DNA of 64,000 nucleotides, from NCBI GenBank assembly GCA_963815115.1, contig CAWFFN010000012.1, positions 150,590 through 214,589 of the forward strand, read 5' to 3'. The translations under genes were made by a program, and so were the position numbers. The notes beneath the pieces are model-generated. The model had not been told where the DNA came from. It searched no databases and saw only the letters and a list, made by a program, of their open reading frames with translations. Origin of the DNA: an uncultured delta proteobacterium. Lineage in GTDB: Bacteria > Desulfobacterota > Binatia > DP-6. Each line of letters starts with the position of its first letter. Within the stretch, counting starts at the first letter, position 1. Below, in pieces: positions 1,402 through 16,541 of this stretch.

Positions 1402-2276
1402 AGGTCGTGTTTCATGCCGACGATTTCGGCCTGACCGCGGCCATCAACGACGGCATCCTCGAAGCCTACGAGCGCGGCGTCCTGCGCAGCACCTCGCTCA
1501 TCGTGACGGCCGAGGCGGCGGCGCACGGCGTCGCGGCTGCCAGGACGGCTCCCGGGCTGGACGTCGGAGTCCATCTCACCCTGGTCGAGGAGCGTCCCGT
1601 GCTTCCGCCCGAGCGCGTCCCGACTCTCGTCGCCGGCGACCGGTTCCTGCCGACCCACGCCGCGGTCGGCGCGCGCTTCCTGACGGGACGCTGGCGGCCC
1701 GCGGAGGCACGCGCCGAGCTCGCCGCGCAGCTCGAGCGATTCGCCGCATCGGGCCTCGTGCCGTCTCATCTCGACGGGCACCAGCACCTCCACCTCCTGC
1801 CGGGCGTGCTGCCCTTCGTCGTCACCGAGGCGCGACGGCGCGGCATCCGCTTCGTGCGCACGGCGCTCGGGGACGCCGCCTCCCGACCCGCGCAGGCGGT
1901 GCGTGCCCTGACCCTGCACGCCACCAACGCCGTGTCGCGGCTCGCGTCGCGCGGCGTGGCTCCGGCGGAGCGCCGCGGCCTGATCCCGTTCCGGACCATC
2001 GGGTTCCTGCATGCCGGTGGCGGCATGACGCTCGCGGATCTCCTCGCAGCGCTCGACCGAGTCGGGCGGCGATCGCCGGCCGAGGTCGTCGAGGTGATGC
2101 TCCATCCCGGCCGGCGCGACGCCGAGACCGAGCGGCGCTACCGGCACTGGGGATATCGCTGGGAGAACGATCTCGCCCTCCTGCTGGACGCGAGGCTGCC
2201 GGATGCCCTCGCGCGGCGCGGAATCGAATGGACGTCCTTCCGCGCCCTCGCGACCGCCAGCGAGCTTCGCTCGTGA
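1398..2276 (+). CDS. YdjC/ChbG-family carbohydrate deacetylase (HpnK-like)
   Basis: N-terminus MKVVFHADDFGLTAAINDGILEAYERGVLRSTSLIV and the HLDGHQHLH motif are typical of YdjC/HpnK deacetylases. 4-nt ATGA overlap with the upstream gene. Confidence 0.8.
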   Translation: MKVVFHADDFGLTAAINDGILEAYERGVLRSTSLIVTAEAAAHGVAAARTAPGLDVGVHLTLVEERPVLPPERVPTLVAGDRFLPTHAAVGARFLTGRWRPAEARAELAAQLERFAASGLVPSHLDGHQHLHLLPGVLPFVVTEARRRGIRFVRTALGDAASRPAQAVRALTLHATNAVSRLASRGVAPAERRGLIPFRTIGFLHAGGGMTLADLLAALDRVGRRSPAEVVEVMLHPGRRDAETERRYRHWGYRWENDLALLLDARLPDALARRGIEWTSFRALATASELRS

Positions 2277-2294
2277 GCCTGCCGCATCGGTGCC

Positions 2295-3389
2295 GTGATG
2301 GCTGAGCGCTCGTGGAGCACCCGGAGCTACGTCCCCGCCGATGTGGACGGCATCCTCGCGTTGCGCCGGGCGGTCTTTGGCGACCTCGACCGCGTGCGGC
2401 TGAAGCCCGACATCTGGCGCTGGCAGTTCGTCGACAACCCTGCCGGCGCCGGCTACGTCCGGCTCGCCGAGCGCGACGGGACGATCGTGGGTCAGTACGC
2501 GGCGATCCCCACCCGCTTCCGGCTGAACGCCGGGGCAGGGGAGGAGCGGATCTTCGCGATGTCCTGCGACACCATGACCCATCCCGACTACCAGCGGCAG
2601 GGCATGTTCGTCACGCTGGCCCAGGAGCTCTACGCCGAGCTCGCGGATCAGCACGGGGTGTCCACCGTGTGGGGATTCCCCAACGCCGCCTCGCACCCCG
2701 GATTCGTCGGCCGTCTCGGCTGGTTCGACATCCACGTGTTCCCCACCCGCGTGAAACCCATCCGCAGCGCGCCCGTGTTCAAGCGCTACCTCCGCTGGGG
2801 CGTGCTCTCCGGGGCGCTGGGCGCGCTCGCCGACCGCGCCTACCAGCTCGCCACCCCTCGTGTCGCGCCGCCTCGGCGCTGCGAGATCCGCCCGCTGGCG
2901 TCGTTCGACGAGCGCTTCGACGCCCTCTGGCTGCGCCATCGAGCGCTGGCGCCGATCGTGCAGGTCCGCACCCGCGACCATCTCAACTGGCGCTACTGCG
3001 CGGTGCCGGAGTTCGGCTACCGTCCGTTCGCCGTCTTCGTCGGCGGCGCGCTCGAGGGCTACGTCGTGGTCCGCACCCTGACGCTCTTCGATCTTCCCTT
3101 CGCGGCCATGGTCGATCTCTTTCCCTGCCCGGTGGTCGACGCCGAGATCACGCGCGAGGTGCTGAGCTTCGCGCAGATCGAGGCGGAGCGCGCGGGCGCG
3201 GCGTTCCTGACCGCGTTGCTGCCGCCCGCGCACGCCTCGCATCTCACTCGCTTCGGCTTCCTGAAGGTCCCCGGCTTCCTGAACCTCCGGCCCTGGTATC
3301 TCGGCGCGCGCTGCCCGGCGGCCGACCAATCCCTGCTGCGCGACATCGACCACTGGTACGTCACCTATGGCGACGCCGACATCGTCTGA
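2295..3389 (+). CDS. GNAT-family N-acetyltransferase (~364 aa, extended)
   Basis: Acetyl-CoA-binding-like motif DYQRQGMFVTLAQELYAELADQHGVSTVWGFPN. Protein-like composition, unlike the overlapping R/P-rich shadow ORFs. Confidence 0.65.
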   Translation: MMAERSWSTRSYVPADVDGILALRRAVFGDLDRVRLKPDIWRWQFVDNPAGAGYVRLAERDGTIVGQYAAIPTRFRLNAGAGEERIFAMSCDTMTHPDYQRQGMFVTLAQELYAELADQHGVSTVWGFPNAASHPGFVGRLGWFDIHVFPTRVKPIRSAPVFKRYLRWGVLSGALGALADRAYQLATPRVAPPRRCEIRPLASFDERFDALWLRHRALAPIVQVRTRDHLNWRYCAVPEFGYRPFAVFVGGALEGYVVVRTLTLFDLPFAAMVDLFPCPVVDAEITREVLSFAQIEAERAGAAFLTALLPPAHASHLTRFGFLKVPGFLNLRPWYLGARCPAADQSLLRDIDHWYVTYGDADIV

Positions 3390-4083
3390 CGCCCGCACCC
3401 CCTTCACCGTCGGCATCCCGGTGTACAACGAGGAGGCGATCCTGGTCCCCAACACCGAGCGCCTGCTCGCCTACCTCGACCGCTTCGGACGCCAGTACGA
3501 GGTGCTCATCGGGTCCAACGGCTCGACCGACTCGACGACGGCGCTCGGCATCGACCTGACCCGGCGCTTCCCGCAGGTCGCGTTCTTCCACGTGCCGGAG
3601 CGTGGCGTGGGGCTGGCCTTCCGCGAGTTCATTCGCCAGGCACGCTATCCCCTGCTCGTCTCGGTCGACATGGATCTCTCCATCGACCTCGACTTCGTCA
3701 AGCGCGCCCTCACCCTGCTCGAGGATCACGACATCGTCGTCGGCTCGAAGAAGCTCGGGAAGCAGAAGCGGTCGTTCGTGCGGCGCGTCGCGTCCGACAC
3801 CTTCCTCCGCATTGCCCGCGTGCTGCTCGGCATCGACTACGACGACTACTCGATCGCGGCCAAGGGCTACCGCGTCGAGACCGTGCGCCGCTTCGCGGAT
3901 CGCATCAACGAGGGCTCGTCGTACGTCATCGAGATGTGCTTCCTCACCAAGCGGGCCGGCGGACGGATCGTCCAGATCCCGGTGGAATGCGAGGACTGGC
4001 GCAAGTCGAAGTTCAACCTGGTGCACGAGGCGTTGTACAAGTACACCCATCTCGTCGGGCTCTGGCTGCGCGGGGGGCGATGA
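3367..4083 (+). CDS. Family-2 glycosyltransferase (polyprenyl-phosphate sugar synthase-like, DPM1/ArnC-like)
   Basis: FTVGIPVYNEEAILVPNTERLLAYLD...YEVLIGSNGSTDST...SVDMDLS are GT2 hallmarks (DxD-like region). Size 238 aa. Confidence 0.8.
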   Translation: MATPTSSDARTPFTVGIPVYNEEAILVPNTERLLAYLDRFGRQYEVLIGSNGSTDSTTALGIDLTRRFPQVAFFHVPERGVGLAFREFIRQARYPLLVSVDMDLSIDLDFVKRALTLLEDHDIVVGSKKLGKQKRSFVRRVASDTFLRIARVLLGIDYDDYSIAAKGYRVETVRRFADRINEGSSYVIEMCFLTKRAGGRIVQIPVECEDWRKSKFNLVHEALYKYTHLVGLWLRGGR

Positions 4084-4493
4084 GCGACGCGGCGCTCGAG
4101 GCCGAGGCTCGCATCTTCGGCCGCTACCTGGTCGGCCGCCCGCCGGAGCCGGCGCTCGTGGCGCGCTACGGCGCGGCTTGCCGGACGCTCTGGCCGTCAC
4201 CGCCCGGGCCGCGCGACGCGGCCGTGCTGGCGTTCGTGCGGCGGCGTCCCTGGAGCATCGGGCCGCTCGACGCGGCTGCCGCGCTGCTCGACCCCGGCGG
4301 TCTCCTGCGCAGCAAGGTGCTGGTGATGAGCGCCCTGCTCGAGGCGACGCCGGCCCACGCGGACGACTTCCTGCCGCGCGCGGCGTCGACCCCGGCACTG
4401 CTCTGGCGGCTGGCGGCGTCGGGCGCCGTCGCGGTCGCCCAGGCGGCCGCCGGCGTATTGCTCTATCGGCTCGCCGCCCGCGCGCGCGCATGA
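4080..4493 (+). CDS. Hypothetical small protein (137 aa)
   Basis: ATGA-coupled at both ends (upstream stop 4081-4083, downstream start 4490). Composition is borderline. Confidence 0.45.
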   Translation: MSDAALEAEARIFGRYLVGRPPEPALVARYGAACRTLWPSPPGPRDAAVLAFVRRRPWSIGPLDAAAALLDPGGLLRSKVLVMSALLEATPAHADDFLPRAASTPALLWRLAASGAVAVAQAAAGVLLYRLAARARA

Positions 4494-6094
4494 CCGACGT
4501 GATCGTCGTCGGCTCGGGCCCGGGAGGGACCAACGCCGCGGCCCGCCTCGTCGAAGCGGGCCGCAGCGTGCTGATGCTCGACTTCGGGAACCGTGACGCG
4601 CGCTATGCCGATCTCGTTCCCGACCGGCCGTTCCTCCAGATCCGCCACGAGGACCGGGAGCAGCATCGCTATCTCCTCGGCGAGACGTTCGAGGGCATCC
4701 CCTTCGGCGCCGTACGGGTCGGCGCGCAGCTGACGCCGCCGCGCAGCTATGCCCTGGCCGACGCGCCCGAGCGCATGCCGGTCGACGCGCCGGGCTTCGC
4801 GGTCTCGATGAGCCTGGCACGCGGCGGGCTCGGGGTGGCGTGGGGAGCCGGGGTGTTCCCGTTCTCCGACGACGAGCTGCGCGCGATGCATCTCGACCTG
4901 GCGACGATGCAGCCGCACTACGACGCCGTCGCGGCGCGCATCGGCGTGGCGGGCGCGCGGGACGACCTGCTGCGCTTCTACCCCCCCAGCCCGGACATGA
5001 TGCCGGCGCTCGACGCCGACACCAACGGCACGATCGTGCTCGAGCGCTACCTGCGCCAGCGTGCCCGGCTCAACGCCGACGGGTTCTTCCTCGGCCGGCC
5101 GCGCATCGCGGTGTGCTCGGAGCCGTTCCGGGGGCGGCTGGCGTACCCCTACTACGACCTCGATTTCTGGTCCGACCCCGGGCGCAGCATCTACCGCCCG
5201 ATGTGGACCCTGGACGAGCTCGAGCGGAAGCCCGGCTTCACCTATCGGCCGCGCTGCCTCGTTCGCGGCTTCGTGGAGGACGGGGCGGGTGTGCGCGTCG
5301 AGGCGACGCACGCCGACACCGGCGCGCGCGAGCGCCACGAGGCGCGGGCCCTCGTGCTCGCGGCCGGGACCTTTGGCACCGCCCGTCTGGTCCTGCGCTC
5401 GCTCGAGCGCTACGACACGCCGGTGCCGCTGGTCTCGAACCCCTACACGTACGTGCCGACGCTGAACCTCGGCATGATCGGGCGGCCGACGCGCGACCCG
5501 CGCTCGAGCCAGGGCCAGCTGACGGCAATCCTCGAGCGCCAGGAGCCGTGGCATCGCCTGGTGCAGGCGCAGGTCTTCTCCTATCGCTCGCTCCTGACCT
5601 TCAAGCTCATGAAGGAGCTGCCCCTCGCGGCGCGCCAGTCGCGCCGCATGCTCCAGGTTCTCATGCCGTGCTTCGCCATCCTCGGGATTCACCACGAGGA
5701 CCGGCCGGGCGCCGCCAAGACGTGCACGCTCCGGCGGGGCCCGGGCGACGGTCCGGACACGCTCGCCATCCGCTACCAGCCCAGCGAGGAGGAGGAGCAC
5801 ATGCAGCGGGAGGACGAGAGAGCGCTGCTGCGCTGCTTCCGGCGGCTCGGCTGCCTGCCGCTCAAGCGCATCCGGCCGGGACACGGCTCCAGCATCCACT
5901 ACGCCGGGACGTTCCCGATCACGGCCGAGGACCGCCCGCTCACCTGCGACCACGACAGCCGGCTGCGCGGCACCCGCGCCGTGTACCTGGCGGACGGCTC
6001 GGTCTTTCCCTGGCTGCCGCCGAAGGGCCTCACCTTCAACATCATGGCGAACGCCGATCGCGTCGGTGCCATCGTCGCGGAGCGGCTGCAATGA
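4490..6094 (+). CDS. FAD-dependent oxidoreductase, GMC family-like
   Basis: N-terminal Rossmann MTDVIVVGSGPGGTNAAARLVEAGRSVLMLD and C-terminal HYAGTFPI...ADGSVFP motifs are typical of GMC oxidoreductases. Start overlaps the upstream stop. Confidence 0.75.
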   Translation: MTDVIVVGSGPGGTNAAARLVEAGRSVLMLDFGNRDARYADLVPDRPFLQIRHEDREQHRYLLGETFEGIPFGAVRVGAQLTPPRSYALADAPERMPVDAPGFAVSMSLARGGLGVAWGAGVFPFSDDELRAMHLDLATMQPHYDAVAARIGVAGARDDLLRFYPPSPDMMPALDADTNGTIVLERYLRQRARLNADGFFLGRPRIAVCSEPFRGRLAYPYYDLDFWSDPGRSIYRPMWTLDELERKPGFTYRPRCLVRGFVEDGAGVRVEATHADTGARERHEARALVLAAGTFGTARLVLRSLERYDTPVPLVSNPYTYVPTLNLGMIGRPTRDPRSSQGQLTAILERQEPWHRLVQAQVFSYRSLLTFKLMKELPLAARQSRRMLQVLMPCFAILGIHHEDRPGAAKTCTLRRGPGDGPDTLAIRYQPSEEEEHMQREDERALLRCFRRLGCLPLKRIRPGHGSSIHYAGTFPITAEDRPLTCDHDSRLRGTRAVYLADGSVFPWLPPKGLTFNIMANADRVGAIVAERLQ

Positions 6095-6969
6095 GTGCCG
6101 CCGCGAAGGTGGTCGCCGTGACCGGCGCCTCCGGATTCATCGGCGGCGCACTGTGCCGGATGCTGGCCGGCCGCGGCTGGGAGGTTCGCGCGCTGGTGCG
6201 CTCACCGGAGCGCTTCACGGGCGTCCCGGGCGTGCGTCCCGCGCGCTGCGACCTGCCGGACTCGATCGACGAGACGGCGCTCGCCGGTGCGGCGGCCGTC
6301 GTGCACTGCGCCTACGCCACGCGCGAGACCGACCTCGAGCGGGCGCGGCGGGTGAACGAGGACGGCACGCGCGTGCTCCTGGAGAGAGCGCGCCGCGCGG
6401 GCGCGCGCGTGGTGTTCGTCTCGACGATCGCCGCCGCCGCGGACGCGCCCAGCTACTACGCGCGCAGCAAGCACGCCCTCGAGGAGCTCTTCGACCCGGC
6501 GCGCGACGCGATCGTGCGTCCCGGCCTGGTGATCGGCCCGGGCGGCCACGGGCTCTTCCAGCAGCTGCTCGACAACATGCGCCGGCTGCGCGTCGTTCCG
6601 CTGTTCGGCGGGGGCCGCCAGCCCCTGCAGACCGTGCACGTGGACGATCTGTGCGAGGCCATCATCCGCGTCCTGGAGCGCGACCTGAGCGGCGCCTACA
6701 ACGTCGCGGAGCCGGATCCGCCGACGCTCGGTGCGTTCCTGCGCACGATGGCGGCGAGGCTCGGCATCCGCTGCGTGTTCGTGCCGCTGCCGTTCGCGCC
6801 CGTCCTCGCCGGCGTGCGGGCGCTGGAGGGGATGCGCGTGCCGTTTCCTCTCAGGTCGGAGAGCCTCCTCGGGTTGCAAGGGCTGCGGCGCGTCGCCGTC
6901 GACGACGATCTCCGCCGCCTCGGACTCCGGGTGCGTCCCGCGGCGGAGAGCCTCGCTTCGGTGGATTGA
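6091..6969 (+). CDS. NAD-dependent epimerase/dehydratase
   Basis: VVAVTGASGFIGGALCRML Rossmann motif and a YxxxK region (YYARSKHALEE). ATGA overlap with the upstream gene. The last 131 nt are repeated at 10014-10146. Confidence 0.8.
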   Translation: MSAAAKVVAVTGASGFIGGALCRMLAGRGWEVRALVRSPERFTGVPGVRPARCDLPDSIDETALAGAAAVVHCAYATRETDLERARRVNEDGTRVLLERARRAGARVVFVSTIAAAADAPSYYARSKHALEELFDPARDAIVRPGLVIGPGGHGLFQQLLDNMRRLRVVPLFGGGRQPLQTVHVDDLCEAIIRVLERDLSGAYNVAEPDPPTLGAFLRTMAARLGIRCVFVPLPFAPVLAGVRALEGMRVPFPLRSESLLGLQGLRRVAVDDDLRRLGLRVRPAAESLASVD

Positions 6970-6984
6970 AGGGCGGAGCTGGGC

Positions 6985-9885
6985 TCAACCCTCGTGCCCG
7001 AGGCAGCCGGGCATGAGCTGGAGCTGGAGCGTATCGACCTGGTGCAGGTGCGCCACCGCGAGGTAGTCCCCCTGCGCGGCGAGCGCCGAGGTGCCGGTCG
7101 TCCCGAGCGCCAGGAGCTTGGTCAGGTTCTCCCGCACGAGCAGCTTTCCGGTCTCGTCCTGGATCGAGAGCCGTGCCGCCTGCGGCGAGAGCGTCGCGAC
7201 CCATCCGTTCCCCACGGCGATCGGTGAGCAGTCGCCCAGCCGGACTCCCCAGCCAGGCGACACCACCGCCGGGAAGCGCCGCACGATCGTTCCCGAGCCG
7301 GTATCGAGGACCTGGATCTCCTGCTCGGCCGAGGCGAGGAAGAGCAGGTCCCCGCTGGCGGCGATCCCCGTCCATGCGCCTTCCGGCAGGGGCCACGGGG
7401 GCGCGGGAGCGGCGCTCAGCCGGCCGCTGAGAGCGTCGACGGCCCACCAGGTATCGCGCGCGAACGCGGCGCATGCGTGTCCGATGCTGTCGGGCAGTGC
7501 CGGCACCTGCGTGCGGGCGGCCAGAGCCCCCTTCCCGATGCGCGTCTCGCCGCCATGACGGTCGAGCAGCCGCACCACCGGTGCGCTGCCGTCCCGGGTG
7601 TCGACGCCCATCGCGACCGGCTCCTGGACCGTGAACTTGTGCGGGCCCACGCTCACGAAGTCGTAGCTTCCGACGATCCAAACGGGGACGGCACCCTGCC
7701 CGGGCAGGCTGCCGAGAGAGAGCGCATCGTTGGCCTGATTGCTCGATCCCCTCTTCACCAGGTTCGCGCACCCCCGTGCGGCATCGAGGCTCAGGAACTG
7801 CTCGAGGGCGTTCCGTGTCTCGGGCCACCTCGAGCGCGGCGTCCGGATCTGGAGGGGAGGAACGCCTTCCTCCGCGGGCCGTTGCCCCGCGACCCCGAGC
7901 GGCGGCTCGGCCAGGCTGACCGGCGTTCCGCCCGCGGCCTGAAGTCGGTTGGCGAGCGCGAGCTCCCAGCGGGTAGGGTGCCTGAACTCCCAGACGATGG
8001 TCTCGGCATCGCCGGTCCGGATCTGCGCGTCGAGATAGGTGAGCGGCGACTTGACGTCGGAGGCATACAGCCTGAGCACGCTCGGGAGCGAGGTCTCGCG
8101 GTCGACGTTGCGGAGCGCCGAGTACAGATCGATGAACCGCTCCGGCTTGCCAGCGCCGAGCGCCGCCAGCTTGCCGTACAGGCGAAGCCCCCCCGGCGCG
8201 GTCGGATTCTCGCGCTGCTCGTCGCTGTCCACGAGCACGACCGAGCTCCCGCCCGCGATCTCGTGCCCCCAGCGCCGGCCGTCGCGCGCGCATCCGAGGC
8301 ACGTGATGCCGTCGCCGAAGCCGCTCTCGCCGAAGGGGATCTTCGTTCCGTGAGCCGGGGGCAGGGCGGCGTACAGCAGGCCCAGGCCGCCACCGGACCA
8401 TGCGGCGAGCGCCAGGACCGCACCAGCGAACACCGTGCGCCGCGCGCCGGGCGATACCTCGACGAGGGGACGCATGCGGGCGAGGACGACGCCGCCGTGC
8501 GCGGCGAGGGCGCACCATGCCAGGTCGAAGATCAGGAAGCGCCGCGCGGTGGCCGCGCTGAGGACCGGCAGGGCGAGACCGCCGAGCGCGAGCGCGATCC
8601 AGAGATACCAGGCTCTGAGCGCTCGCAGCCTGGCGAGGCCGATGAGCCCCAGGAGAACCACCGGCAGGAGGCACAAGCCTCCGTGCGCGAAACCCGGGTC
8701 CAGCGCCGTCCCCGGACCCGTTGCCGGTCGTTCCCAGAGCGCGTTCAGATCCTCCGCTCGTCCGTTCCAGAAGTACGTCCGCAGCGTCGGCGCCAGCTGT
8801 TGGCGCAGGTTGTCGTGGATGCTGCCGAGCAGCGTGCCGTAGATCACCTCGGAGCGGTTTCCGACATAGCCGGGATAGCGCGGCCACAGCGATGCCAGCG
8901 TCGGCATTCCCACGGCGAGCACGCCGGCGGCCACGAACCCCGATCCCAGGCACAGTGGAAGCACCACCCACTGGCGGCGCACGGATCCCGCCGCACGCAT
9001 CCCCGCGAGCAACGCCAGGAGCGAGAGCGGGATCGCGACCCGCGCGGCGTAGTAATGGTAGACTGACGTGCACGCGACCACACCGGCCAGGAGCGCCAGC
9101 GCGATGCTCCGCGCGCATCCCGCCGCGCGCATCCCCGCGAGCAGCGCCAGGAGCGAGAGCGGAATCGCGACCCGCGCGGCGTAGTAGTCATAGACCGACG
9201 TCCACGCGACCACACCGGCGAGGAGCGCCAGCGCGACGCTCCTGCGCGAGCCGGCGCGATGGGCGAGCCAGAGGACGAGGAGCGTGTGGGGAACCGCCGC
9301 GATCTGCAGCCCGCCGAGGCGTGCCCAGGTGATCTGCAACGGGGAGACGGCGACCAGTCCCGCGAACGCGAGGCCGAACGCCGGCGACACGACCGCCCGC
9401 CCGACGAGCCAGGCCAGCACGACGGCGAGGATCCCGCACAGGCTCCCGATGTACTGCGGCAGCTCGAGCGACGGTCCCAGGGTGGCGACGGCGAGCGCGT
9501 TCACCGGCACCATGACGGCGGATTCCTGGGGCCAGTTCACCTGCGTCGAGGAGAGCACCGTCCTCCAGCGGTCCCACAGGCCGCCCTTCACGAGCAGTGT
9601 GGCGGCGTCCACCACGCCCGCTTCGGGGAAGAACAAGCGCGGCTGGTGCTCGGAGGTCGCGAAGAGGGTCCGCAGGAGTGCGGCGAGCACGACGATGCCG
9701 AGGAGGAGGCCCAGCTCCTGGCGCCGCGGGATGGGAGGGATCGCGGGGACCGGCCGGCGGCGCCCCCGGATCGACGCCACGACGATCGCGAGCACGATCA
9801 GGGCCCCGAGCACGATGAGCCCTCGCTCTGCGCGGCCCGAGAGCTCGAGCCAGCGCAGCGCGCCGACCGGGACAGGCGGCTGCAC
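6985..9885 (-). CDS. GT-C fold membrane glycosyltransferase-like protein (GT39/ArnT/PMT-like N-terminus, large periplasmic C-terminal domain), paralog 1 (966 aa)
   Basis: Multi-TM N-terminal half resembles the ArnT/PMT lipid-carrier-dependent glycosyltransferase architecture. About 500 aa of hydrophilic C-terminus. About 90% identical to the downstream paralog. Confidence 0.65.
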   Translation of the reverse strand: MQPPVPVGALRWLELSGRAERGLIVLGALIVLAIVVASIRGRRRPVPAIPPIPRRQELGLLLGIVVLAALLRTLFATSEHQPRLFFPEAGVVDAATLLVKGGLWDRWRTVLSSTQVNWPQESAVMVPVNALAVATLGPSLELPQYIGSLCGILAVVLAWLVGRAVVSPAFGLAFAGLVAVSPLQITWARLGGLQIAAVPHTLLVLWLAHRAGSRRSVALALLAGVVAWTSVYDYYAARVAIPLSLLALLAGMRAAGCARSIALALLAGVVACTSVYHYYAARVAIPLSLLALLAGMRAAGSVRRQWVVLPLCLGSGFVAAGVLAVGMPTLASLWPRYPGYVGNRSEVIYGTLLGSIHDNLRQQLAPTLRTYFWNGRAEDLNALWERPATGPGTALDPGFAHGGLCLLPVVLLGLIGLARLRALRAWYLWIALALGGLALPVLSAATARRFLIFDLAWCALAAHGGVVLARMRPLVEVSPGARRTVFAGAVLALAAWSGGGLGLLYAALPPAHGTKIPFGESGFGDGITCLGCARDGRRWGHEIAGGSSVVLVDSDEQRENPTAPGGLRLYGKLAALGAGKPERFIDLYSALRNVDRETSLPSVLRLYASDVKSPLTYLDAQIRTGDAETIVWEFRHPTRWELALANRLQAAGGTPVSLAEPPLGVAGQRPAEEGVPPLQIRTPRSRWPETRNALEQFLSLDAARGCANLVKRGSSNQANDALSLGSLPGQGAVPVWIVGSYDFVSVGPHKFTVQEPVAMGVDTRDGSAPVVRLLDRHGGETRIGKGALAARTQVPALPDSIGHACAAFARDTWWAVDALSGRLSAAPAPPWPLPEGAWTGIAASGDLLFLASAEQEIQVLDTGSGTIVRRFPAVVSPGWGVRLGDCSPIAVGNGWVATLSPQAARLSIQDETGKLLVRENLTKLLALGTTGTSALAAQGDYLAVAHLHQVDTLQLQLMPGCLGHEG
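8995..9260. repeat. In-frame tandem duplication (~130 bp x2) inside paralog 1
   Basis: Two adjacent near-identical DNA units starting ccccgcgagcARcgccaggagcgagagcgg at ~9001 and ~9133. They encode the repeated 43-aa segment ALALLAGVVAWTSVYDYYAARVAIPLSLLALLAGMRAAG and account for the 966 versus 923 aa length difference. Confidence 0.8.
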
Positions 9886-10013
9886 GTCGTGTCTTGTGCG
9901 CGCCGGCGCCGAATGCTGTCAAGAAGGAAGCGGAACGTTCATGCTCGCGCACGGCGTGCCACCGCGAGCAGGCTCGCTCCGACGTTCGGCGCGGAGAGTC
10001 ACGCCCGCGTGCG

Positions 10014-10146
10014 AACGCCGTTTCCTCTCAGGTCGGAGAGCCTCCTCGGGTTGCAAGGGCTGCGGCGCGTCGCCGTCGACGACGATCTCCGCCGCCTCGG
10101 GCTCCGGGTGCGTCCCGCGGCGGAGAGCCTCGCTTCGGTGGATTGA
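10014..10146 (+). pseudogene. Duplicated 3' remnant of the NAD-epimerase gene (encodes the last ~44 aa, ...PFPLRSESLLGLQGLRRVAVDDDLRRLGLRVRPAAESLASVD)
   Basis: Nearly identical to 6838-6969. No upstream coding body. Confidence 0.7.
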
Positions 10147-10160
10147 AGGGCGGAGCCGGC

Positions 10161-12932
10161 TCAACCCTCGTGCCCGAGGCAGCCGGGCATGAACTGGAGC
10201 TCGAGCGCATCGACCCGGTTCCGGTGCCCGACGGCGAGGTAGTTCCCGTCAGCGGCGAGCGCGGAGGTGCCCGTCGTTCCGAGCGACAGCAGCTTCGTCA
10301 GGTCCTCGCGCACGAGCAGCTTTCCGGTCTCGTCCTGGATCGAGAGCCGTGCCGCCTGCGGCGAGAGCGTCGCGACCCATCCGTTCCCCACGGCGATCGG
10401 TGAGCAGTCGCCCAGCCGGACTCCCCAGCCAGGCGACACCACCGCCGGGAAGCGCCGCACGATCGTTCCCGAGCCGGTATCGAGGACCTGGATCTCCTGC
10501 TCGGCCGAGGCGAGGAAGAGCAGGTCCCCGCTGGCGGCGATGCCCGTCCATGCGCCTTGCGGGAGGGGCCACTGCGGGGCGGGAGCGGCGCTCAGCCGGC
10601 CGCTGAGAGCGTTGACGACCCACCAGGTGCCGTGCGCGAACGCGGCGCACGCGTGTCCGATGCTGCCGGGCAGTGCCGGCACCTGCGTGCGGGCGGCGGG
10701 GATCCCCTTCCCGATGCGCATCTCGCCCCCATGGCGGTCGAGCAAACGCACCACGGGCGTGCTGCCGTCCCGGGTCTCGACGCCCATCGCGACCGGTTCC
10801 TGGACCGTGAGCTTCAGCTTGCCCAGGCTCACGAAGTCGTAACTTCCGACGATCCACGAGGGGTTGGCACCCTGCCCGGGCAGGCTGCCGAGCACCGAGA
10901 GCGCATCGTTGTCCTGATCGCTCGATCCCCGCTTCACCAGGGTCGCACAGCCGCGATCGGCATCGAGGCTCATGAACTGCTCGAGAGCCGCGCGTGCCTC
11001 GGGCCACCTCGAGCGCGGCGTCCGGATCTGGAGGGGAGGAACGCCTTCCTCCGCCGGTCGTTCCGCCCCGACCCCGAGCGGCGGCTCGGCCAGGCTGACG
11101 GGCGTTCCGCCCGCTGCCTGGAGCCGATTGGCGAGCTCCAGCTCCCACCGCGTCGGATCCCTGAACTCCCACACGACGGTCTCGGCATCGCCGGCCCGGA
11201 TCTGCGCGTCGAGATACGTGAGGGGCGACGCGACATCGTCGGCGTAGAGCCGGCGCACGCTCGGGAGCGCAGTCTCGCGGTCGACGTTGCGCAGCGCCGA
11301 GTACAGATCGATGAACCGCTCCGGCCTGCCGGCGCCGAGCGCCGCCAGCGTGCCGTAGAGACGAAGCCCCCCCGGCGAGGTGGGATTCTCGCGCTGCTCG
11401 TCGCTGTCCACCAGCACGACCGAGCTGCCGCTCGCGATCTCGTGCCGCCAGCGCCGGCCGTCGCGCGCACATCCCAGGCACGTCAGCCCGTCGCCGAAAC
11501 CGCTCTCACCGAAGGGGATCCTCGTTCCGTGGGCCGGCGGCAGGGCGGCGCACAGCAGACCCAGGCCGCCTCCGGACCACGCGGCGAGCGCAAGGACCAC
11601 GCCCGCGAACAGCGTGCGCCGCGCGCCGGGCGATGCCTCGACGAGGGGACGCATGCGGGCGAGAACGACGACGCCGTGCGCAGCGAGGGCGCACCATGCC
11701 AGGTCGAAGATCAGAAAGCGCCGCGCGGTGGGCGCGCTGAGGACCGGCAGGGCGAGGCCTCCGAGCGCGAGCGCGATCCAGAGATACCAGGCTCTGAGGG
11801 CTCCAAGCCTGGCGAGGCCAACGAGCCCCAGAAGGGCAACCGGAAGGAGACACAATCCGCCGTGGGCGAACCCGGCGTCGAGCGCCGTCCCGGGACCGGT
11901 GGCCGGCAGCTTCCAGAGCGCGTTCAGGTCTTCCGCTCGCCCGGTCCAGAAGTACGTTCGAACCGCCGGGACCAGCTGCTGTTTCAGGTTGTCGTGGACA
12001 CTGCGGAGCACCTCGCCGTACGTCTCCTCGGAGCGGTTGCCGACATAGCCGGCATAGCGCGGCCAGAGCGATGCCAGCGCCGGCATTCCCCCGGCGAGGA
12101 CGCCGGCGACCGCGAAGCCCGATCCCAGGCACAGTGGAAGCACCAGCCACTGGCGGCGCACGGATCCCGCCGCGCGCATCCCCGCGAGCAGCGCCAGGAG
12201 CGAGAGCGGAATCGCGACCCGCGCGGCGTAGTAGTCATAGACCGACGTCCACGCGACCACACCGGCGAGGAGCGCCAGCGCGACGCTCCTGCGCGAGCCG
12301 GCGCGATGGGCGAGCCAGAGGACGAGGAGCGTGTGGGGAACCGCCGCGATCTGCAGCCCGCCGAGGCGTGCCCAGGTGATCTGCAACGGGGAGACGGCGA
12401 CCAGTCCCGCGAACGCGAGGCCGAACGCCGGCGACACGACCGCCCGCCCGACGAGCCAGGCCAGCACGACGGCGAGGATCCCGCACAGGCTCCCGATGTA
12501 CTGCGGCAGCTCGAGCGACGGTCCCAGGGTGGCGACGGCGAGCGCGTTCACCGGCACCATGACGGCGGATTCCTGGGGCCAGTTCACCTGGGTCGAGGAG
12601 AGCGCGACCTTCCAGCGGGTCCACAGGCCGCCCTTCACGAGCAGTGTGGCGGCGTCCACCACGCCCGCTTCGGGGAAGAACAAGTGCGGCTGCTGCTCGG
12701 AGGTCGCGAAGAGGGTCCGCAGGAGTGCGGCGAGCACGACGATGCCGAGGAGGAGGCCCAGCTCCTGGCGCCGCGGGATGGGAGGGATCGCGGGGACCGG
12801 CCGGCGGCGCCCCCGGATCGACGCCACGACGATCGCGAGCACGATCAGGGCCCCGAGCACGATGAGCCCCCGCTCTGCGCGGCCCGAGAGCTCGAGCCAG
12901 CGCAACGCGGCGACCGGGACAGGCGGCTGCAC
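10161..12932 (-). CDS. GT-C fold membrane glycosyltransferase-like protein, paralog 2 (923 aa)
   Basis: Same architecture as 6985-9885. Lacks the internal 43-aa duplication. Confidence 0.65.
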   Translation of the reverse strand: MQPPVPVAALRWLELSGRAERGLIVLGALIVLAIVVASIRGRRRPVPAIPPIPRRQELGLLLGIVVLAALLRTLFATSEQQPHLFFPEAGVVDAATLLVKGGLWTRWKVALSSTQVNWPQESAVMVPVNALAVATLGPSLELPQYIGSLCGILAVVLAWLVGRAVVSPAFGLAFAGLVAVSPLQITWARLGGLQIAAVPHTLLVLWLAHRAGSRRSVALALLAGVVAWTSVYDYYAARVAIPLSLLALLAGMRAAGSVRRQWLVLPLCLGSGFAVAGVLAGGMPALASLWPRYAGYVGNRSEETYGEVLRSVHDNLKQQLVPAVRTYFWTGRAEDLNALWKLPATGPGTALDAGFAHGGLCLLPVALLGLVGLARLGALRAWYLWIALALGGLALPVLSAPTARRFLIFDLAWCALAAHGVVVLARMRPLVEASPGARRTLFAGVVLALAAWSGGGLGLLCAALPPAHGTRIPFGESGFGDGLTCLGCARDGRRWRHEIASGSSVVLVDSDEQRENPTSPGGLRLYGTLAALGAGRPERFIDLYSALRNVDRETALPSVRRLYADDVASPLTYLDAQIRAGDAETVVWEFRDPTRWELELANRLQAAGGTPVSLAEPPLGVGAERPAEEGVPPLQIRTPRSRWPEARAALEQFMSLDADRGCATLVKRGSSDQDNDALSVLGSLPGQGANPSWIVGSYDFVSLGKLKLTVQEPVAMGVETRDGSTPVVRLLDRHGGEMRIGKGIPAARTQVPALPGSIGHACAAFAHGTWWVVNALSGRLSAAPAPQWPLPQGAWTGIAASGDLLFLASAEQEIQVLDTGSGTIVRRFPAVVSPGWGVRLGDCSPIAVGNGWVATLSPQAARLSIQDETGKLLVREDLTKLLSLGTTGTSALAADGNYLAVGHRNRVDALELQFMPGCLGHEG

Positions 12933-13052
12933 GTCGTGGCTTGTGCGCCCCGGCGCCGAATGCTGTCAAGAAGGAAGCGGAACGTTCATGCTCGCGCACG
13001 GCGTGCCACCGCGAGCAGGCTCGCTCCGACCGGCAGCGGTACGCCAGCCGGG

Positions 13053-13472
13053 TCAGGGGGCGCCGCTCTTCCCGCCGTCGCCGAGCAGCCGCGCTCGCGT
13101 CCCCGCGACGTCGACGAGCGGCTGCTTGCGCAGGCGCTCGACCTCCGCCGCGGTGTACGGGGTGAAGTCCGCGGGCACGTGGGCGTGATCGAAGCGCTCC
13201 AGCAGCCAGTTGAGCACCGCGGCCAGCGCCGCGTCGTCGAGCGGCGCCTGCGCGACGCCGGGCACGCGCGCGAGGTAGTCGCGGCCGCCCGGCGCGGCGA
13301 GGAAGCGCGCGACCGACCCCTGCAGCGCGGGAACGCTGCCGGGCGTGCTCGTGCCGTCGGCGCGGTGGCAGCCCTCGCAGTTGAGCGTGTAGTCGAGCGC
13401 CGGTCCGCTCGCCGCGCCGGCGAGCGGCGCGATCCCGACGACGGCCGCCAGCGCGGCGCCAGCGCGCCACAT
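13053..13472 (-). CDS. Monoheme c-type cytochrome (signal peptide plus CEGCH heme-binding motif)
   Basis: CXXCH motif after a signal peptide (MWRAGAALAAVVGIAPLAGAAS). Lies 4 nt downstream of mauA on the same strand. Confidence 0.7.
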   Translation of the reverse strand: MWRAGAALAAVVGIAPLAGAASGPALDYTLNCEGCHRADGTSTPGSVPALQGSVARFLAAPGGRDYLARVPGVAQAPLDDAALAAVLNWLLERFDHAHVPADFTPYTAAEVERLRKQPLVDVAGTRARLLGDGGKSGAP

Positions 13473-13475
13473 CGG

Positions 13476-14025
13476 CTACGACTTCGTCGCCACGCCCAGC
13501 ACGACTGCGACCGAGCAGTTGACGGCGCGGCTCTTGGTACCGAAGCACCACAGCAGGTCGTTGTTCCTGGAGGTGTAGTACACGGGCCGCTCGCCCTCGG
13601 TACGCGAGCAGCGGCATCGCATGCAGAGGGACTGCCCGCAGCAGTCGTTGTACGAGATGATGTAGTCCTTGCCGTCGCCGGGATGGCGGCACGTGCCGAT
13701 CCAGGTGACCGGCGACATCTCCGTCCCCGGCGGGCAGGTGTTCTGCGAGCCGCCGCAGCACGAGCACAGGAACCCGTCGATGGCGCAGTGGCGCCAGTAG
13801 CTGCAGCTCTGGGGATCGCCCGCCGGGGCCTCGAGGCGGGCATCGTCGGGCGCCGGGACCCGCGACTCGTCATCCGCCGCGCGTGCCACCGGCAGCAGCG
13901 GCAGTGCCGCGGCGCCGACCAGCGCCGCACCGGCGCGCGCGAGCACGCTCCGGCGCGACGTGCGCCGCGCGAGCGCGCGGGCGCTCCGTTCCACCAGGCG
14001 ATCCATCCAGCCGCGCCCGTCGTTC
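13476..14025 (-). CDS. mauA: Methylamine/aralkylamine dehydrogenase light (small, TTQ-bearing) subunit
   Basis: Strong match to MauA signature blocks: SYWRHCAIDGFLCSCCGG...CPPGT...YNDCCG...ERPVYY...LLWCFG. Tat-like leader RRSVLARAGAALVGAAALPL. Start overlaps the mauD stop. Confidence 0.85.
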
Positions 14026-14644
14026 ATCGCCGTGCGACCTCCGTGCGCTCCTCGACGCCGCGCAGGAACTCCTGGATCGAGGCGACGCCCCGCTCCTGCG
14101 CCTCGAAGAGGCTCTCCAGGTGCTCGCGCGTGTTCACCAGACCCTTGGCGCGCACCGTGCCGGAGCCGTCGACGAGCGCGGCATAGGGCAGCTTTCCCAC
14201 CTGCCATCGCATGCCGAGCTCCGGCGACAGCAGATACGGGAACGCATCCAGGCGCTCGGCACGCACGAACGCCTCGTGCTCCGCGCGCGGACCGTCACTC
14301 GCGAGCACGAGGTCGAGCCACGCCGTCTCGCGCCGGGCGATGCCGCGCAGCGCAGGCAGGAGCGTCTTGCAGACCGGGCAGGTGGGCGACAGGAAGAAGA
14401 GGAGGGTGCTCCGGCCGTCGTCGCGCGGGGCGCCGATCTCGTGCAGGCGGGCGCCGAGATCCTCCGCCTGGATCACGGGCGCCGCCGCGCCGACCGTCGG
14501 ACCGCGTCCGAGGAGCAGCGCGCCTGCCGGCGCCACGCGCTCATAGAGGACGCCGATCTGGCGGGTGAGGGCCACGACCACGCAGGCCAGCACCACGACG
14601 GCGATCCACAGCACGATCGTCGAGACCACGAGCGCCTGCGTCAC
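14024..14644 (-). CDS. mauD: MauD, thioredoxin-like methylamine utilisation protein
   Basis: N-terminal TM helix plus thioredoxin-fold with CPVC motif (LLFFLSPTCPVCKTLLPAL). GTG start overlapping the mauE stop (GTGA). Only the C-terminal 207 codons of the 888-aa ORF 14024-16690 are protein-like. Confidence 0.75.
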   Translation of the reverse strand: MTQALVVSTIVLWIAVVVLACVVVALTRQIGVLYERVAPAGALLLGRGPTVGAAAPVIQAEDLGARLHEIGAPRDDGRSTLLFFLSPTCPVCKTLLPALRGIARRETAWLDLVLASDGPRAEHEAFVRAERLDAFPYLLSPELGMRWQVGKLPYAALVDGSGTVRAKGLVNTREHLESLFEAQERGVASIQEFLRGVEERTEVARR

Positions 14645-15177
14645 GCGGCCTCCTGCAGGCGCGCGAGCGCGGGACCCGCGGCGAGGAGGTGATCGCTGGC
14701 CCTCCAGCAGGCCGCGAACGCCGCGGTCGCGGCCACGACCGTGAGCGGGTCGATCCACACCATCGGACGGGGCTGCACCGGGGCGAGAGCGGCGAGCGCG
14801 ACCGCCACCGCCACCAGCGCCAGGTTGCGCACCACCAGCCAGCCGCTGATCGGACGCCGCATCGCCGGTCCGGTGCAGCCGCAGTCGAGATGGCGCCGCC
14901 CGCGCGCGAGGTTGACGGCGATGGCGCCGGCGTACAGCGCGAGCAGGGCGGCTGCGCCGGCGAGTCCCCACCGGCGCGCGACGAGCAGGGCGGCGACGAC
15001 GGCCCCCTCGGCCACCACGAGCACCGTCGCGCCGGGCGAGACGAGCGGACGCGGCAGCAGCCGGTAGTCCTCGACCGTCGCCCGGAAGCGCGCGACGTCG
15101 CGCACCTTGTGCCCCGTCGCGGACAGGAAGAGGAGCGCGAGCGCGACACGCACGGTCACGTCGACGACCGGGTCCAT
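14641..15177 (-). CDS. mauE: MauE, methylamine utilisation membrane protein
   Basis: ~178 aa polytopic membrane protein in the position between mauB and mauD expected from known mau clusters (order mauB-mauE-mauD-mauA). Confidence 0.75.
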   Translation of the reverse strand: MDPVVDVTVRVALALLFLSATGHKVRDVARFRATVEDYRLLPRPLVSPGATVLVVAEGAVVAALLVARRWGLAGAAALLALYAGAIAVNLARGRRHLDCGCTGPAMRRPISGWLVVRNLALVAVAVALAALAPVQPRPMVWIDPLTVVAATAAFAACWRASDHLLAAGPALARLQEAA

Positions 15178-15180
15178 GGC

Positions 15181-16419
15181 TCAGGGCGCCACCAGCAGGC
15201 CGCCCGCGAGCCCCGGCTCCGAGACCTCCCGCAGGACCTTGCCCGTCATGGCATCGTGGATCGTGAGCGTCGGCGGCAGCGAGGCGGAGGCGACCAGCAC
15301 CGGATGCTCGTCCTGCGTCACCAGGATGCGCTCGATTCCCGGATTGGGCACGACCTTGTCGAGGAGCCAGCGCTCGATGCGGCCCGTCGTCCGGCTGCGG
15401 TCGATCGAGGCCTGCAGGCCGACGAAGCTGACCACCGGGTTCAGCATCGAGACGCGCTGCACCCGCGTTCGCGTTCCCACGTCGTACACCCAGACCTCGG
15501 TGCCCGGCGCCTTGTGCGAGTCGGGGCCGCCCTGGTGCACCAGGACATAGAGGCGTCCCGAGGCCTGGTGCAGGGCGAGAAGCTGACCGCCGCCGATGCG
15601 CCACGAGGCAGAGCGATCCTGGTCGTCGAGGAGCGGCCAGGTGTCGCCGAAGCGCACTGTCTCGCCCGACACGTCGACGGGATGGACGACCCCGTCGAAG
15701 GACACGAAGAACCACGTGCCGCCGCGCCGGACCGCCTTCTCGGTGATCGGGTCCTTCTGGGCGTCGAAGAAGGGCTCGGTGCGTGCCGGTGTTGCCGTGC
15801 CGCTCGCCTCGTCGAGAGTCACCGTGAGCGCCCCGCCGTTGGCGCACAACATGAGGAAGCGCCGCGGACCGGCGCCGTAGACGAGGCTGCACCCCGGGGT
15901 GGGCACCTCGGTGACGAAGCGCCGCGCCTGCACGTCGACGATCGAGAGCGAGGTGACGGGAGTCAGGTTGAACACCGCGAGGAAGCGGCCGTCGTCGGAC
16001 AGCGCGCTGGACGCGTTGCCCGGGTAGTACTCGGCGCGCCGGGGCGGGATCTGGATCTCCTGGAGCGGCGCCAGGGTGCGCGCGTCGTAGACCGTCACCA
16101 CGTCCGTGCGATCGCCGCGCACGCCGCGGCTGTAGTAGGTCTCGGAGAGGTAGATCTCGCGGTGGTCGGGCGAGAAGAGGGGTAGGATCGCGAAGCCGAC
16201 GCCGGGCGTGCCCGACGTGATCTGGCCGAGCAGCTCGCCCTTCCCGCCGTCGAAGAGGGCCGTGCGGTGCAGGATGATGTCGCTCAGCCAGAACCAGTGC
16301 GGCCCGGGTCGTTCGGGCAAGGTCGCCGCCTTGCCGATGGTCTCCGGCTCCGGGGCCGCGCCCGCGAGCCCGACGGCGAAGCACCCGGCGAGGAGTGCCA
16401 CCGGAAGGCGGCGTCGCAT
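15181..16419 (-). CDS. mauB: Methylamine/aralkylamine dehydrogenase heavy (large, beta-propeller) subunit
   Basis: ~410 aa secreted protein (MRRRLPVALLAGCFAVGLAGAAP) with beta-propeller-like repeat content. Position immediately upstream of mauE. Confidence 0.8.
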   Translation of the reverse strand: MRRRLPVALLAGCFAVGLAGAAPEPETIGKAATLPERPGPHWFWLSDIILHRTALFDGGKGELLGQITSGTPGVGFAILPLFSPDHREIYLSETYYSRGVRGDRTDVVTVYDARTLAPLQEIQIPPRRAEYYPGNASSALSDDGRFLAVFNLTPVTSLSIVDVQARRFVTEVPTPGCSLVYGAGPRRFLMLCANGGALTVTLDEASGTATPARTEPFFDAQKDPITEKAVRRGGTWFFVSFDGVVHPVDVSGETVRFGDTWPLLDDQDRSASWRIGGGQLLALHQASGRLYVLVHQGGPDSHKAPGTEVWVYDVGTRTRVQRVSMLNPVVSFVGLQASIDRSRTTGRIERWLLDKVVPNPGIERILVTQDEHPVLVASASLPPTLTIHDAMTGKVLREVSEPGLAGGLLVAP

Positions 16420-16541
16420 GGCCGTCCGTCTCACCGAGGACAGTCCGAGAGGCACGAGGCGGGCGTATAGCATGCACGACCCGTCGCGGAACACGGCCGA
16501 CCTTGACCGGCCTCGTACGGCATCCACATACTCCGATCGCG

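Follow-up and report, generated by a model that had tools for sequence, protein, structure and literature searches.

The window analysed here, a 64-kb stretch of the metagenome-assembled genome (MAG) of an uncultured soil bacterium, Candidatus Binatia, contains two direct tandem repeats, each of which carries a gene for a large membrane protein with a predicted fold resembling that of GT-C glycosyltransferases (gene 1, GTC1, and gene 2, GTC2; Table 1). The G+C content of the window is 72%, and genes were therefore placed by the G+C content at third codon positions (GC3 frame analysis) instead of by the length of open reading frames (ORFs). Self-BLASTN aligned 6840-9115 with 10017-12295 at 90.2% identity (2281 nt) and 9110-9983 with 12157-13030 at 98.2% identity (875 nt), and found no other long repeat in the window. 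When the two copies were globally aligned with MAFFT, they differed at 225 of 3011 ungapped columns (92.5% identity) and by indels of 1 nt, 3 nt, and 132 nt. One Val codon (...NDALS-V-LGS...), which is present in copy 2 at 10893-10895, is missing from copy 1 at 7716-7718; it is kept in the gene of the related contig L001 and in more distant homologues, and the deletion of copy 1 is shared by the relative P0005. A preliminary description of the locus had placed the two repeats at coordinates that agree with ours within 3 nt, and the difference between NQAND and DQDND to which it had drawn attention is seen in the two translations.

Gene 1 is followed by a convergent epimerase gene, the 3′ end of which belongs to repeat copy 1. 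At the equivalent position of copy 2 lies an orphan epimerase tail, which repeats the terminal 130 nt of the epimerase gene down to and including its stop codon, matches epimerase residues 248-292 at 95.6% in tblastn, and is 97% identical to the resident gene. The tandem segmental duplication is genuine, and its junction is marked by this tail, as had been proposed, with the homology starting at 6840 and 10017 rather than at 6838 and 10014. A plus-strand ORF at 6066-7016 was considered as the epimerase frame and rejected, as it is a wrong frame encoding Arg-rich junk.

The segments of ~100 nt upstream of the two genes (U1 and U2) were identified by alignment with the intact methyltransferase 3′ ends of L001 and L003, another related contig. 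They consist of a methyltransferase remnant and a spacer, and each copy is thus bounded by two gene fragments. In annotation, the "epimerase" ORF at 10017-10146 should be treated as a gene remnant, and so should the stretch of ~100 nt that lies immediately upstream of each GTC gene. Upstream of copy 2, a deletion joint at 13043/13044 fuses the 3′ flank of a cytochrome c gene to the ~60-nt 3′ end of the methyltransferase gene. The genes for a GT2 glycosyltransferase (310 aa) and an S-adenosylmethionine-dependent methyltransferase (~250-265 aa), which relatives carry between the cytochrome c and GTC genes, are absent from the whole window, and both GTC copies directly follow the methylamine dehydrogenase (mau) and cytochrome c genes on the same strand.

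The copies are separated by a short junction spacer, J. On the plus strand it is entered through an 18-nt segment (9983-10000, starting with the C at 9983), which is inverted relative to the methyltransferase remnant and is a perfect inverted copy of CGTTCGGCGCGGAGAGTC. L001 has CGTTCGGCGCGGAGAGTC in direct orientation within the methyltransferase remnant, beyond U1 and 25 nt further upstream. The 18-nt inverted copy looks like a small inversion-plus-deletion scar of the template-switch type. The second part of J is the 13-nt epimerase-derived CGCCCGCGTGCGA, which starts at the exact epimerase breakpoint of the tail in L001 and is preceded by TCA, as in L001. Overall, J retains 16 of the 17 bases of TCA/CGCCGGCGTGCGA, the sequence that spans the junction of L001. 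From these matches we read J as the same ancestral junction as that of L001, which would later have been trimmed in the window through loss of 20 nt from the tail and, in the remnant, loss of ~190 nt accompanied by a small inversion.

The junction also bears on whether the repeat might be an assembly artefact, in which the assembler joined two alleles of a single gene, from different strains of a mixed population, one after the other. The source of the window is a MAG, several natural haplotypes of the locus coexist, and copy 2 is seen only in this assembly, all of which would be compatible with such an error. However, the copies are separated by a unique rearranged spacer, their bounds are gene fragments instead of limits of identity, and the same type of junction occurs independently in L001, which derives from another project. 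Moreover, a separate deletion joint connects the upstream side of copy 2 to the cytochrome c gene, and the two reading frames are uninterrupted and diverge mainly at third codon positions. An artefact is thus considered very improbable.

Table 1. Positions of the repeat units, genes, gene remnants, and sequence tracts in the window
Feature	Position	Strand	Description	Basis
Repeat copy 1	6840-9983 (3144 nt)		Epimerase 3′ end, 15-nt spacer, gene 1, 98-nt upstream segment U1	BLASTN, MAFFT
Repeat copy 2	10017-13042		Tail, gene 2, U2	BLASTN (10017-13030); to 13042 by comparison with relatives
Epimerase gene	6091-6969	+	NAD-dependent epimerase/SDR, 292 aa	GC3 frame; Pfam Epimerase, E=1e-24
Gene 1 (GTC1)	6985-9885	-	966 aa	GC3 frame; AlphaFold2 model
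Gene 2 (GTC2)	10161-12932	-	923 aa, intact	GC3 frame; exact match to P0001
Orphan epimerase tail	10017-10146	+	43 codons and stop, without start codon or 5′ part	
U1	9886-9983	-	About the last 45 nt of the methyltransferase gene (including TGA) and the methyltransferase-to-GTC intergenic region	
U2	12933-13042	-	Methyltransferase 3′ remnant and intergenic region	
Junction J	9984-10016		33-nt spacer: inverted methyltransferase-remnant piece, then epimerase-derived piece	Direct reading
Candidate conversion tract 1	8968-9543		Identical to 12147-12590 apart from the 132-nt indel	P<5e-5
Candidate conversion tract 2	9647-9822		Identical to 12694-12869	P=5e-5
Candidate conversion tract 3	7133-7365		Propeller-coding part; identical to 10309-10541	P<5e-5
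Reversed-affinity tract	7884-7998		Copy 2 vs L001, 4 differences; copy 1 vs L001, 13; copy 1 vs L002, 7	Scan statistic, P<5e-5
Internal tandem duplication	8978-9241	-	In frame, 2 x 132 nt (44 aa, two helices); within the window, in gene 1 only	
Methylamine dehydrogenase cluster	13053-16527	-	Adjoins the duplication	
Cytochrome c gene	13053-13472	-		
Light chain gene	13476-14207	-		
MauE gene	14641-15177	-		
Heavy chain gene	15181-16527	-		

Mosaic identity, selection, and age of the copies

The identity between the two copies is strongly mosaic. The longest identical run covers 444 aligned nt across the 132-nt indel (427 of them contiguous), and two further runs extend over 233 nt and 176 nt (Table 1). 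A uniform scatter of the 225 differences, simulated by 20,000 permutations, gave a longest run of 152 nt at the 99.9th percentile and of 190 nt at most. A stricter permutation, restricted to sites polymorphic among the two copies and two orthologues, likewise singled out 8974-9539 (P<5e-5), 9664-9820 (P=5e-5), and 7143-7353 (P<5e-5). Synonymous divergence (dS) calculated per 50 codons ranges from 0 to 0.66 and is 0 inside the identical tracts, with values of 0.277 for unconverted and 0.031 for converted codons. The identical regions are not simply slow-evolving, because they differ by 8-12% from the orthologues in the related contigs L002 and L003.

Comparison with the L001 gene provides a second line of evidence. 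Among the 256 sites that vary between copy 1, copy 2, and the L001 gene, 189 are unique to copy 2, marking gene 2 as a diverged paralogue; 35 are shared by copies 1 and 2, and 30 by copy 2 and L001. These three classes are strongly clustered along the gene. The 5′ ~870 nt are near-identical in all three sequences, and within 7884-7998 copy 1 is the odd one out, resembling L002. The significance of the tracts, the dS of 0 within them, and the site patterns discordant with the orthologue support copy-to-copy gene conversion as the probable source of the patchy identity. Both the mosaic pattern and the suggestion of gene conversion in the preliminary description are thus upheld; identity along the unit is far from uniform.

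Gene 1 also carries an in-frame internal tandem duplication with a unit of 132 nt. Compared with the single unit of copy 2, the unit at 9241-9110 shows 2 nt differences and is of copy 2 type, and the unit at 9109-8978 shows 10 and keeps states shared with outgroups. The boundary between the two units (9110) coincides with the edge of the homogenised 5′ block. It was considered whether the duplication is a conversion scar specific to the window, and this was ruled out, as L001 has it as well; the duplication is therefore older than the split of the two GTC1 alleles. It was most likely left behind when the copies recombined out of register; it could also be an earlier internal duplication whose heterology halted branch migration. 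The AlphaFold2 model places the added 44 residues, with low confidence, in a pair of helices and shows no change elsewhere in the fold.

The preliminary description had also raised diversifying selection on the periplasmic domain, and dN/dS was accordingly determined by the Nei-Gojobori method. Between the copies it is 0.32 overall and 0.29 in unconverted codons, no higher than in comparisons with the L002 orthologue (copy 1, 0.35; copy 2, 0.28), and the values for flanking genes are 0.12-0.29. The sole 50-codon window above 1, with a dN/dS of 1.2, includes 1.8 synonymous and 6.2 non-synonymous changes, and no value is convincingly above 1. A reading in which selection keeps or drives the periplasmic segments apart, the rest being too young to have diverged after a recent duplication, could draw on this window and on the concentration of amino-acid differences in loops and in the periplasmic alpha/beta and propeller domains. 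Nevertheless, dS itself is mosaic, and selection at the protein level cannot therefore produce the pattern. The window of 1.2 rests on ~8 substitutions and is situated in the membrane domain, the dN/dS of 0.29 in the diverged parts lies within the 0.28-0.35 of the orthologue comparisons, and the duplication is not recent. Such selection is therefore considered extremely improbable, and the sequences point instead to divergence of the copies under ordinary purifying selection, with a dN/dS of ~0.3. Since both reading frames are intact, both copies are presumably functional.

With regard to age, the dS of flanking genes is 0.14-0.27 between the window and L001 and ~0.5 between the window and L002. 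The dS of unconverted codons, 0.277, is at least as large as the flanking divergence from L001, and the junction is common to L001, so that, measured against these lineages, the duplication is old and the term "recent" first applied to it has to be given up.

Haplotypes of the locus in related contigs

A first scan of genome contigs with copy 2 peptides detected no relative, in a collection that contained neither the genome of the window nor that of P0005. The related contigs L002 and L003 and the P0002 contig show a single-copy layout in the order cytochrome c, GT2, methyltransferase, GTC, and convergent epimerase, and lack the junction that joins the two copies in the window; distant relatives are also single-copy. 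The layout of L001, a 252-kb contig that is syntenic with the window at ~93% identity, is more complex: cytochrome c, GT2, and methyltransferase genes are followed by a gene for an unrelated 582-aa membrane protein, a 150-nt orphan epimerase tail, a 272-nt methyltransferase remnant, GTC1, and the convergent epimerase. Gene 1 with its upstream segment (6985-9983 in the window and 9907-12903 in L001) is ~98.8% identical between the two, with a dS of 0.059, compared to ~93% in the flanking 15 kb, and the block of high identity begins at the gene 1 stop codon. This implies a recent exchange of this one gene between the lineages of the window and L001.

An "empty site" is provided by L010, a 16-kb contig from a third project, which is 98-99% identical to L001 on both sides and has the methyltransferase, the 582-aa gene, and the convergent epimerase without a GTC gene. 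The unit that distinguishes L001 from L010 amounts to 3203 nt and lies between two direct copies of a 150-nt stretch from the epimerase 3′ region. Of these, the left copy retains the L010 3′ end and the right copy has a window-type 3′ end, and both switch at L010 3314-3321. Such a pattern is the signature of a single reciprocal crossover, for example an unequal exchange or the Campbell-type integration of a circle. Formally, the reverse would also be allowed, with the unit looping out in L010 rather than being inserted in L001. An initial interpretation of L001, in which an upstream GTC copy had been replaced by the 582-aa gene, was dropped for insertion of a GTC1 unit after the empty site of L010 was found.

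The 582-aa multi-pass membrane protein is encoded between methyltransferase and epimerase, in the slot of the GTC gene (L001 7787-9535; L010 1464-3209), and its gene looks like an alternative occupant of the GTC locus. The protein has no Pfam or NCBIfam match. Its interpretation as a diverged copy 2 was abandoned, since hhalign against the GTC family profile gave a probability of 0.2. About 20 homologues were found, some of which are labelled Binatia. The window and L001 also differ by a gap of 112 columns at 14501-14750 of the window, in the mauE/mauD region, where MauE of L001 is called as a 419-aa fusion; the gap is either a real indel or assembly noise.

L001 gene 1 holds the copy 2-type 5′ block, the internal unit, and the tract equivalent to 7884-7998. 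From these copy 2-type segments it could be deduced that the donor most likely carried both copies, which favours an in-situ duplication in the lineage of the window and a subsequent export of one unit. Accordingly, the history that we consider probable is an old in-situ tandem duplication, later partly homogenised by gene conversion, with one unit exported. The duplicated unit of ~3.2-3.3 kb would have run from the 3′ end of the methyltransferase gene through the gene for the membrane protein (~920 aa) into the convergent epimerase gene, of which it took in the last ~130-160 nt, and an illegitimate join of the epimerase 3′ region to the methyltransferase 3′ region would have given rise to the junction and the orphan tail. 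The copies would then have diverged to a dS of ~0.28 under purifying selection, while non-reciprocal homologous recombination repeatedly re-homogenised parts of the unit, namely the 5′ ~900 nt in two blocks, the 233-nt propeller tract, the tail, and the upstream segment, yielding the mosaic. Out-of-register recombination between the copies would most likely have generated the 132-nt duplication at the edge of the 5′ block. In the lineage of the window, the junction would have been trimmed and the upstream GT2 and methyltransferase genes deleted. Finally, one unit, consisting of the junction and gene 1, would have passed from a window-like genome to an L010-like genome, where one crossover within the 150 nt of epimerase 3′ homology would have produced L001.

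Several points weigh against this history. The copy number is that of the assembly, and copy 2 (P0001) is seen in this assembly only. The direction of transfer, from the window to L001, is inferred, and L001 gene 1 has two +1 frameshifts; they are single-base insertions at 11548 and 12038 relative to both window copies, leave ORFs of 698 and 269 aa, and do not lie in long homopolymers. These may be sequencing or assembly errors, or pseudogenisation after transfer. The sharing of the junction between J and L001 rests on a match of 13-17 nt and on the 18-nt inverted segment. The 97% identity of the tail requires an additional conversion event if the in-situ duplication is old. In some 120-nt windows, the distance between copies 1 and 2 equals that between copy 1 and L002, which also fits the import of one copy from another lineage.

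In such an import, the copies would be xenologues: a gene 1 unit with a ready-made junction would have entered beside a resident gene 2 by recombination in the epimerase 3′ end. On this view, the central 2 kb would owe their divergence to the separation of the lineages, and later conversion would account for the identical tracts only. The same unit does sit in another background in L001, an empty site exists in L010, and GTC1 is far more similar between the window and L001 than are its flanks. The identity between tail and epimerase is what is expected of a recent target duplication, the near-equality of the copy 1 distances to copy 2 and to L002 recurs in several windows, and the single informative base in J is of the L001/L010 type (A) and not that of the window epimerase (G). 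However, the junction still has to arise once by duplication or by an illegitimate join, and two transfers are required instead of one. Furthermore, the copy 2-type segments in L001 gene 1 indicate that gene 1 and a copy 2-like gene co-resided before the window and L001 alleles split. We therefore regard import as unlikely, and retain in-situ duplication with later export as the preferred history.

Protein family, neighbourhood, and comparison with known systems

The proteins encoded by the two genes match Pfam PMT_2 at residues 148-275 with sub-threshold scores of 17.5 and 19.6 bits (cut-off, 26.1). No match was obtained in NCBIfam or in a sequence-profile search of the PDB, and a few distant homologues carry a precomputed PF13231 match. 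AlphaFold2 models built from a 43-sequence alignment are confident, with pLDDT scores of 87.7 for gene 2 and 88.8 for gene 1, and predict a helical membrane domain (~1-465), an alpha/beta domain (~468-655), and a beta-propeller (~660-915). The best Foldseek matches of the N-terminal part are STT3, PglB, and AglB, with E values of ~1e-7 and a probability of 1.0, but with TM-scores of 0.3-0.4 and a whole-chain root-mean-square deviation above 11 Angstrom; those of the C-terminal part are WD40/BamB propellers. Since the sequence matches are sub-threshold and the TM-scores are 0.3-0.4, the name "GT-C" given to the genes in the preliminary description applies at the level of the fold: similarity of the models stands behind it, and the Pfam match falls short of the cut-off. 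In the family alignment A2, E57 is near-invariant and D410 is invariant. Single-copy members of the family are also present in MAGs of SAR324 and Acidobacteriota.

On the epimerase side, the gene set of window positions 1-6969 is common to L001, L002, and L010, and encodes a PTPS-related/TPR membrane protein, YdjC, GNAT, GT2, a 146-aa membrane protein, a GMC flavoprotein, and the SDR. The best matches of the neighbouring GT2 are ArnC and dolichyl-phosphate hexose transferases, all of them far below the cut-off. Judged from this context, the neighbouring genes would fit a periplasmic glycosylation pathway with a lipid-linked sugar, and an oxidase and reductase pair beside a GT2 of the lipid-phosphate type recalls, by analogy, the epimerisation of a lipid-linked sugar by DprE1/DprE2. 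On the other side, the mau cluster adjoins the duplication and fits the methylotrophy reported for Binatia. The window contains no tRNA genes, a scan of 6700-13600 for promoters and terminators was uninformative, and a literature search combining Binatota and glycosyltransferase returned nothing relevant.

The arrangement can be compared with the mycobacterial embC-embA-embB genes, which are tandem GT-C paralogues arranged head-to-tail and encode large membrane glycosyltransferases with a periplasmic C-terminal domain. They adjoin genes for polyprenyl-phosphate sugar donors, including an oxidase and SDR epimerisation pair. The likeness consists of tandem large membrane genes with a predicted GT-C-like fold beside an oxidase and SDR pair. 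In contrast to emb, however, there is no detectable sequence relationship, the C-terminal part is modelled as alpha/beta and beta-propeller domains rather than carbohydrate-binding modules, and the oxidase is of the GMC type, whereas DprE1 is of the VAO type. In addition, emb paralogues are ancient and functionally distinct, whereas the Binatia copies are 90% identical. The likeness to ArnT/PMT_2 (GT39/GT83-like) and STT3/PglB/AglB proteins lies in the modelled multi-helix membrane domain and the weak PMT_2 match, and the C-terminal propeller architecture distinguishes the Binatia proteins from ArnT, PMT, and STT3.

Concerted evolution of prokaryotic paralogues is an established phenomenon, and prokaryotic cases are surveyed in PMC6053082. 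As in cases of the tufA/tufB type, paralogues at the present locus would have been made partly identical by RecA-type non-reciprocal recombination, with tracts of identity in a diverged background and discordant segment phylogenies. Unlike those cases, the Binatia copies are directly adjacent and only partly homogenised, the putative conversion extends to non-coding gene fragments, namely the tail and the methyltransferase remnant, and one tract boundary coincides with the 132-nt in-frame duplication.

The unit of L001 invites comparison with the Campbell-type integration of excised duplication units and with the amplification units known from Streptomyces and others; homology-facilitated recombination of foreign DNA was reportedly described by de Vries and Wackernagel in 2002. 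The resemblance to Campbell-type integration includes the 150-nt direct repeat of the target, the same switch point in both repeats, the empty-site relative, and an insert that is more donor-like (98.8%) than the flanks (93%). In contrast to the known systems, no mobile-element genes are involved, the homology arm is an orphan gene fragment from an earlier duplication, and the circular intermediate is inferred.

Possible envelope-glycan diversity at the locus

The mechanisms invoked here (duplication, gene conversion, and homologous exchange) are textbook ones and would not surprise a specialist. The locus nevertheless offers a clean and well-bounded example from an uncultured phylum, in which the junction fragments allow the history to be reconstructed over four natural haplotypes: a single GTC gene, a single 582-aa gene, the 582-aa gene with GTC, and GTC with GTC.

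The orphan epimerase tail, the methyltransferase remnant, and the glycosyltransferase-like gene might even make up a self-contained transferable cassette, which would excise in circular form and integrate into other Binatia genomes through one crossover within the ~150 nt of homology to the epimerase gene. We put this forward tentatively, as a possibility that is more doubtful than probable. If it holds true, a second membrane transferase would be added beside the occupant of the slot, either GTC2 or the unrelated 582-aa protein, and the locus would be a population-level variable slot for envelope-glycan transferases that is maintained without mobile-element machinery.

The analysis also draws attention to an uncharacterised family of ~900-aa proteins, with a predicted GT-C-like membrane domain and propeller, from MAGs of Binatia, SAR324, and Acidobacteriota. 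Close relatives differ in how many copies of the gene they carry and in the genes beside it, which is what envelope-glycan diversity would lead one to expect, and the genomic context suggests that the locus may be a structurally plastic envelope-glycan locus.

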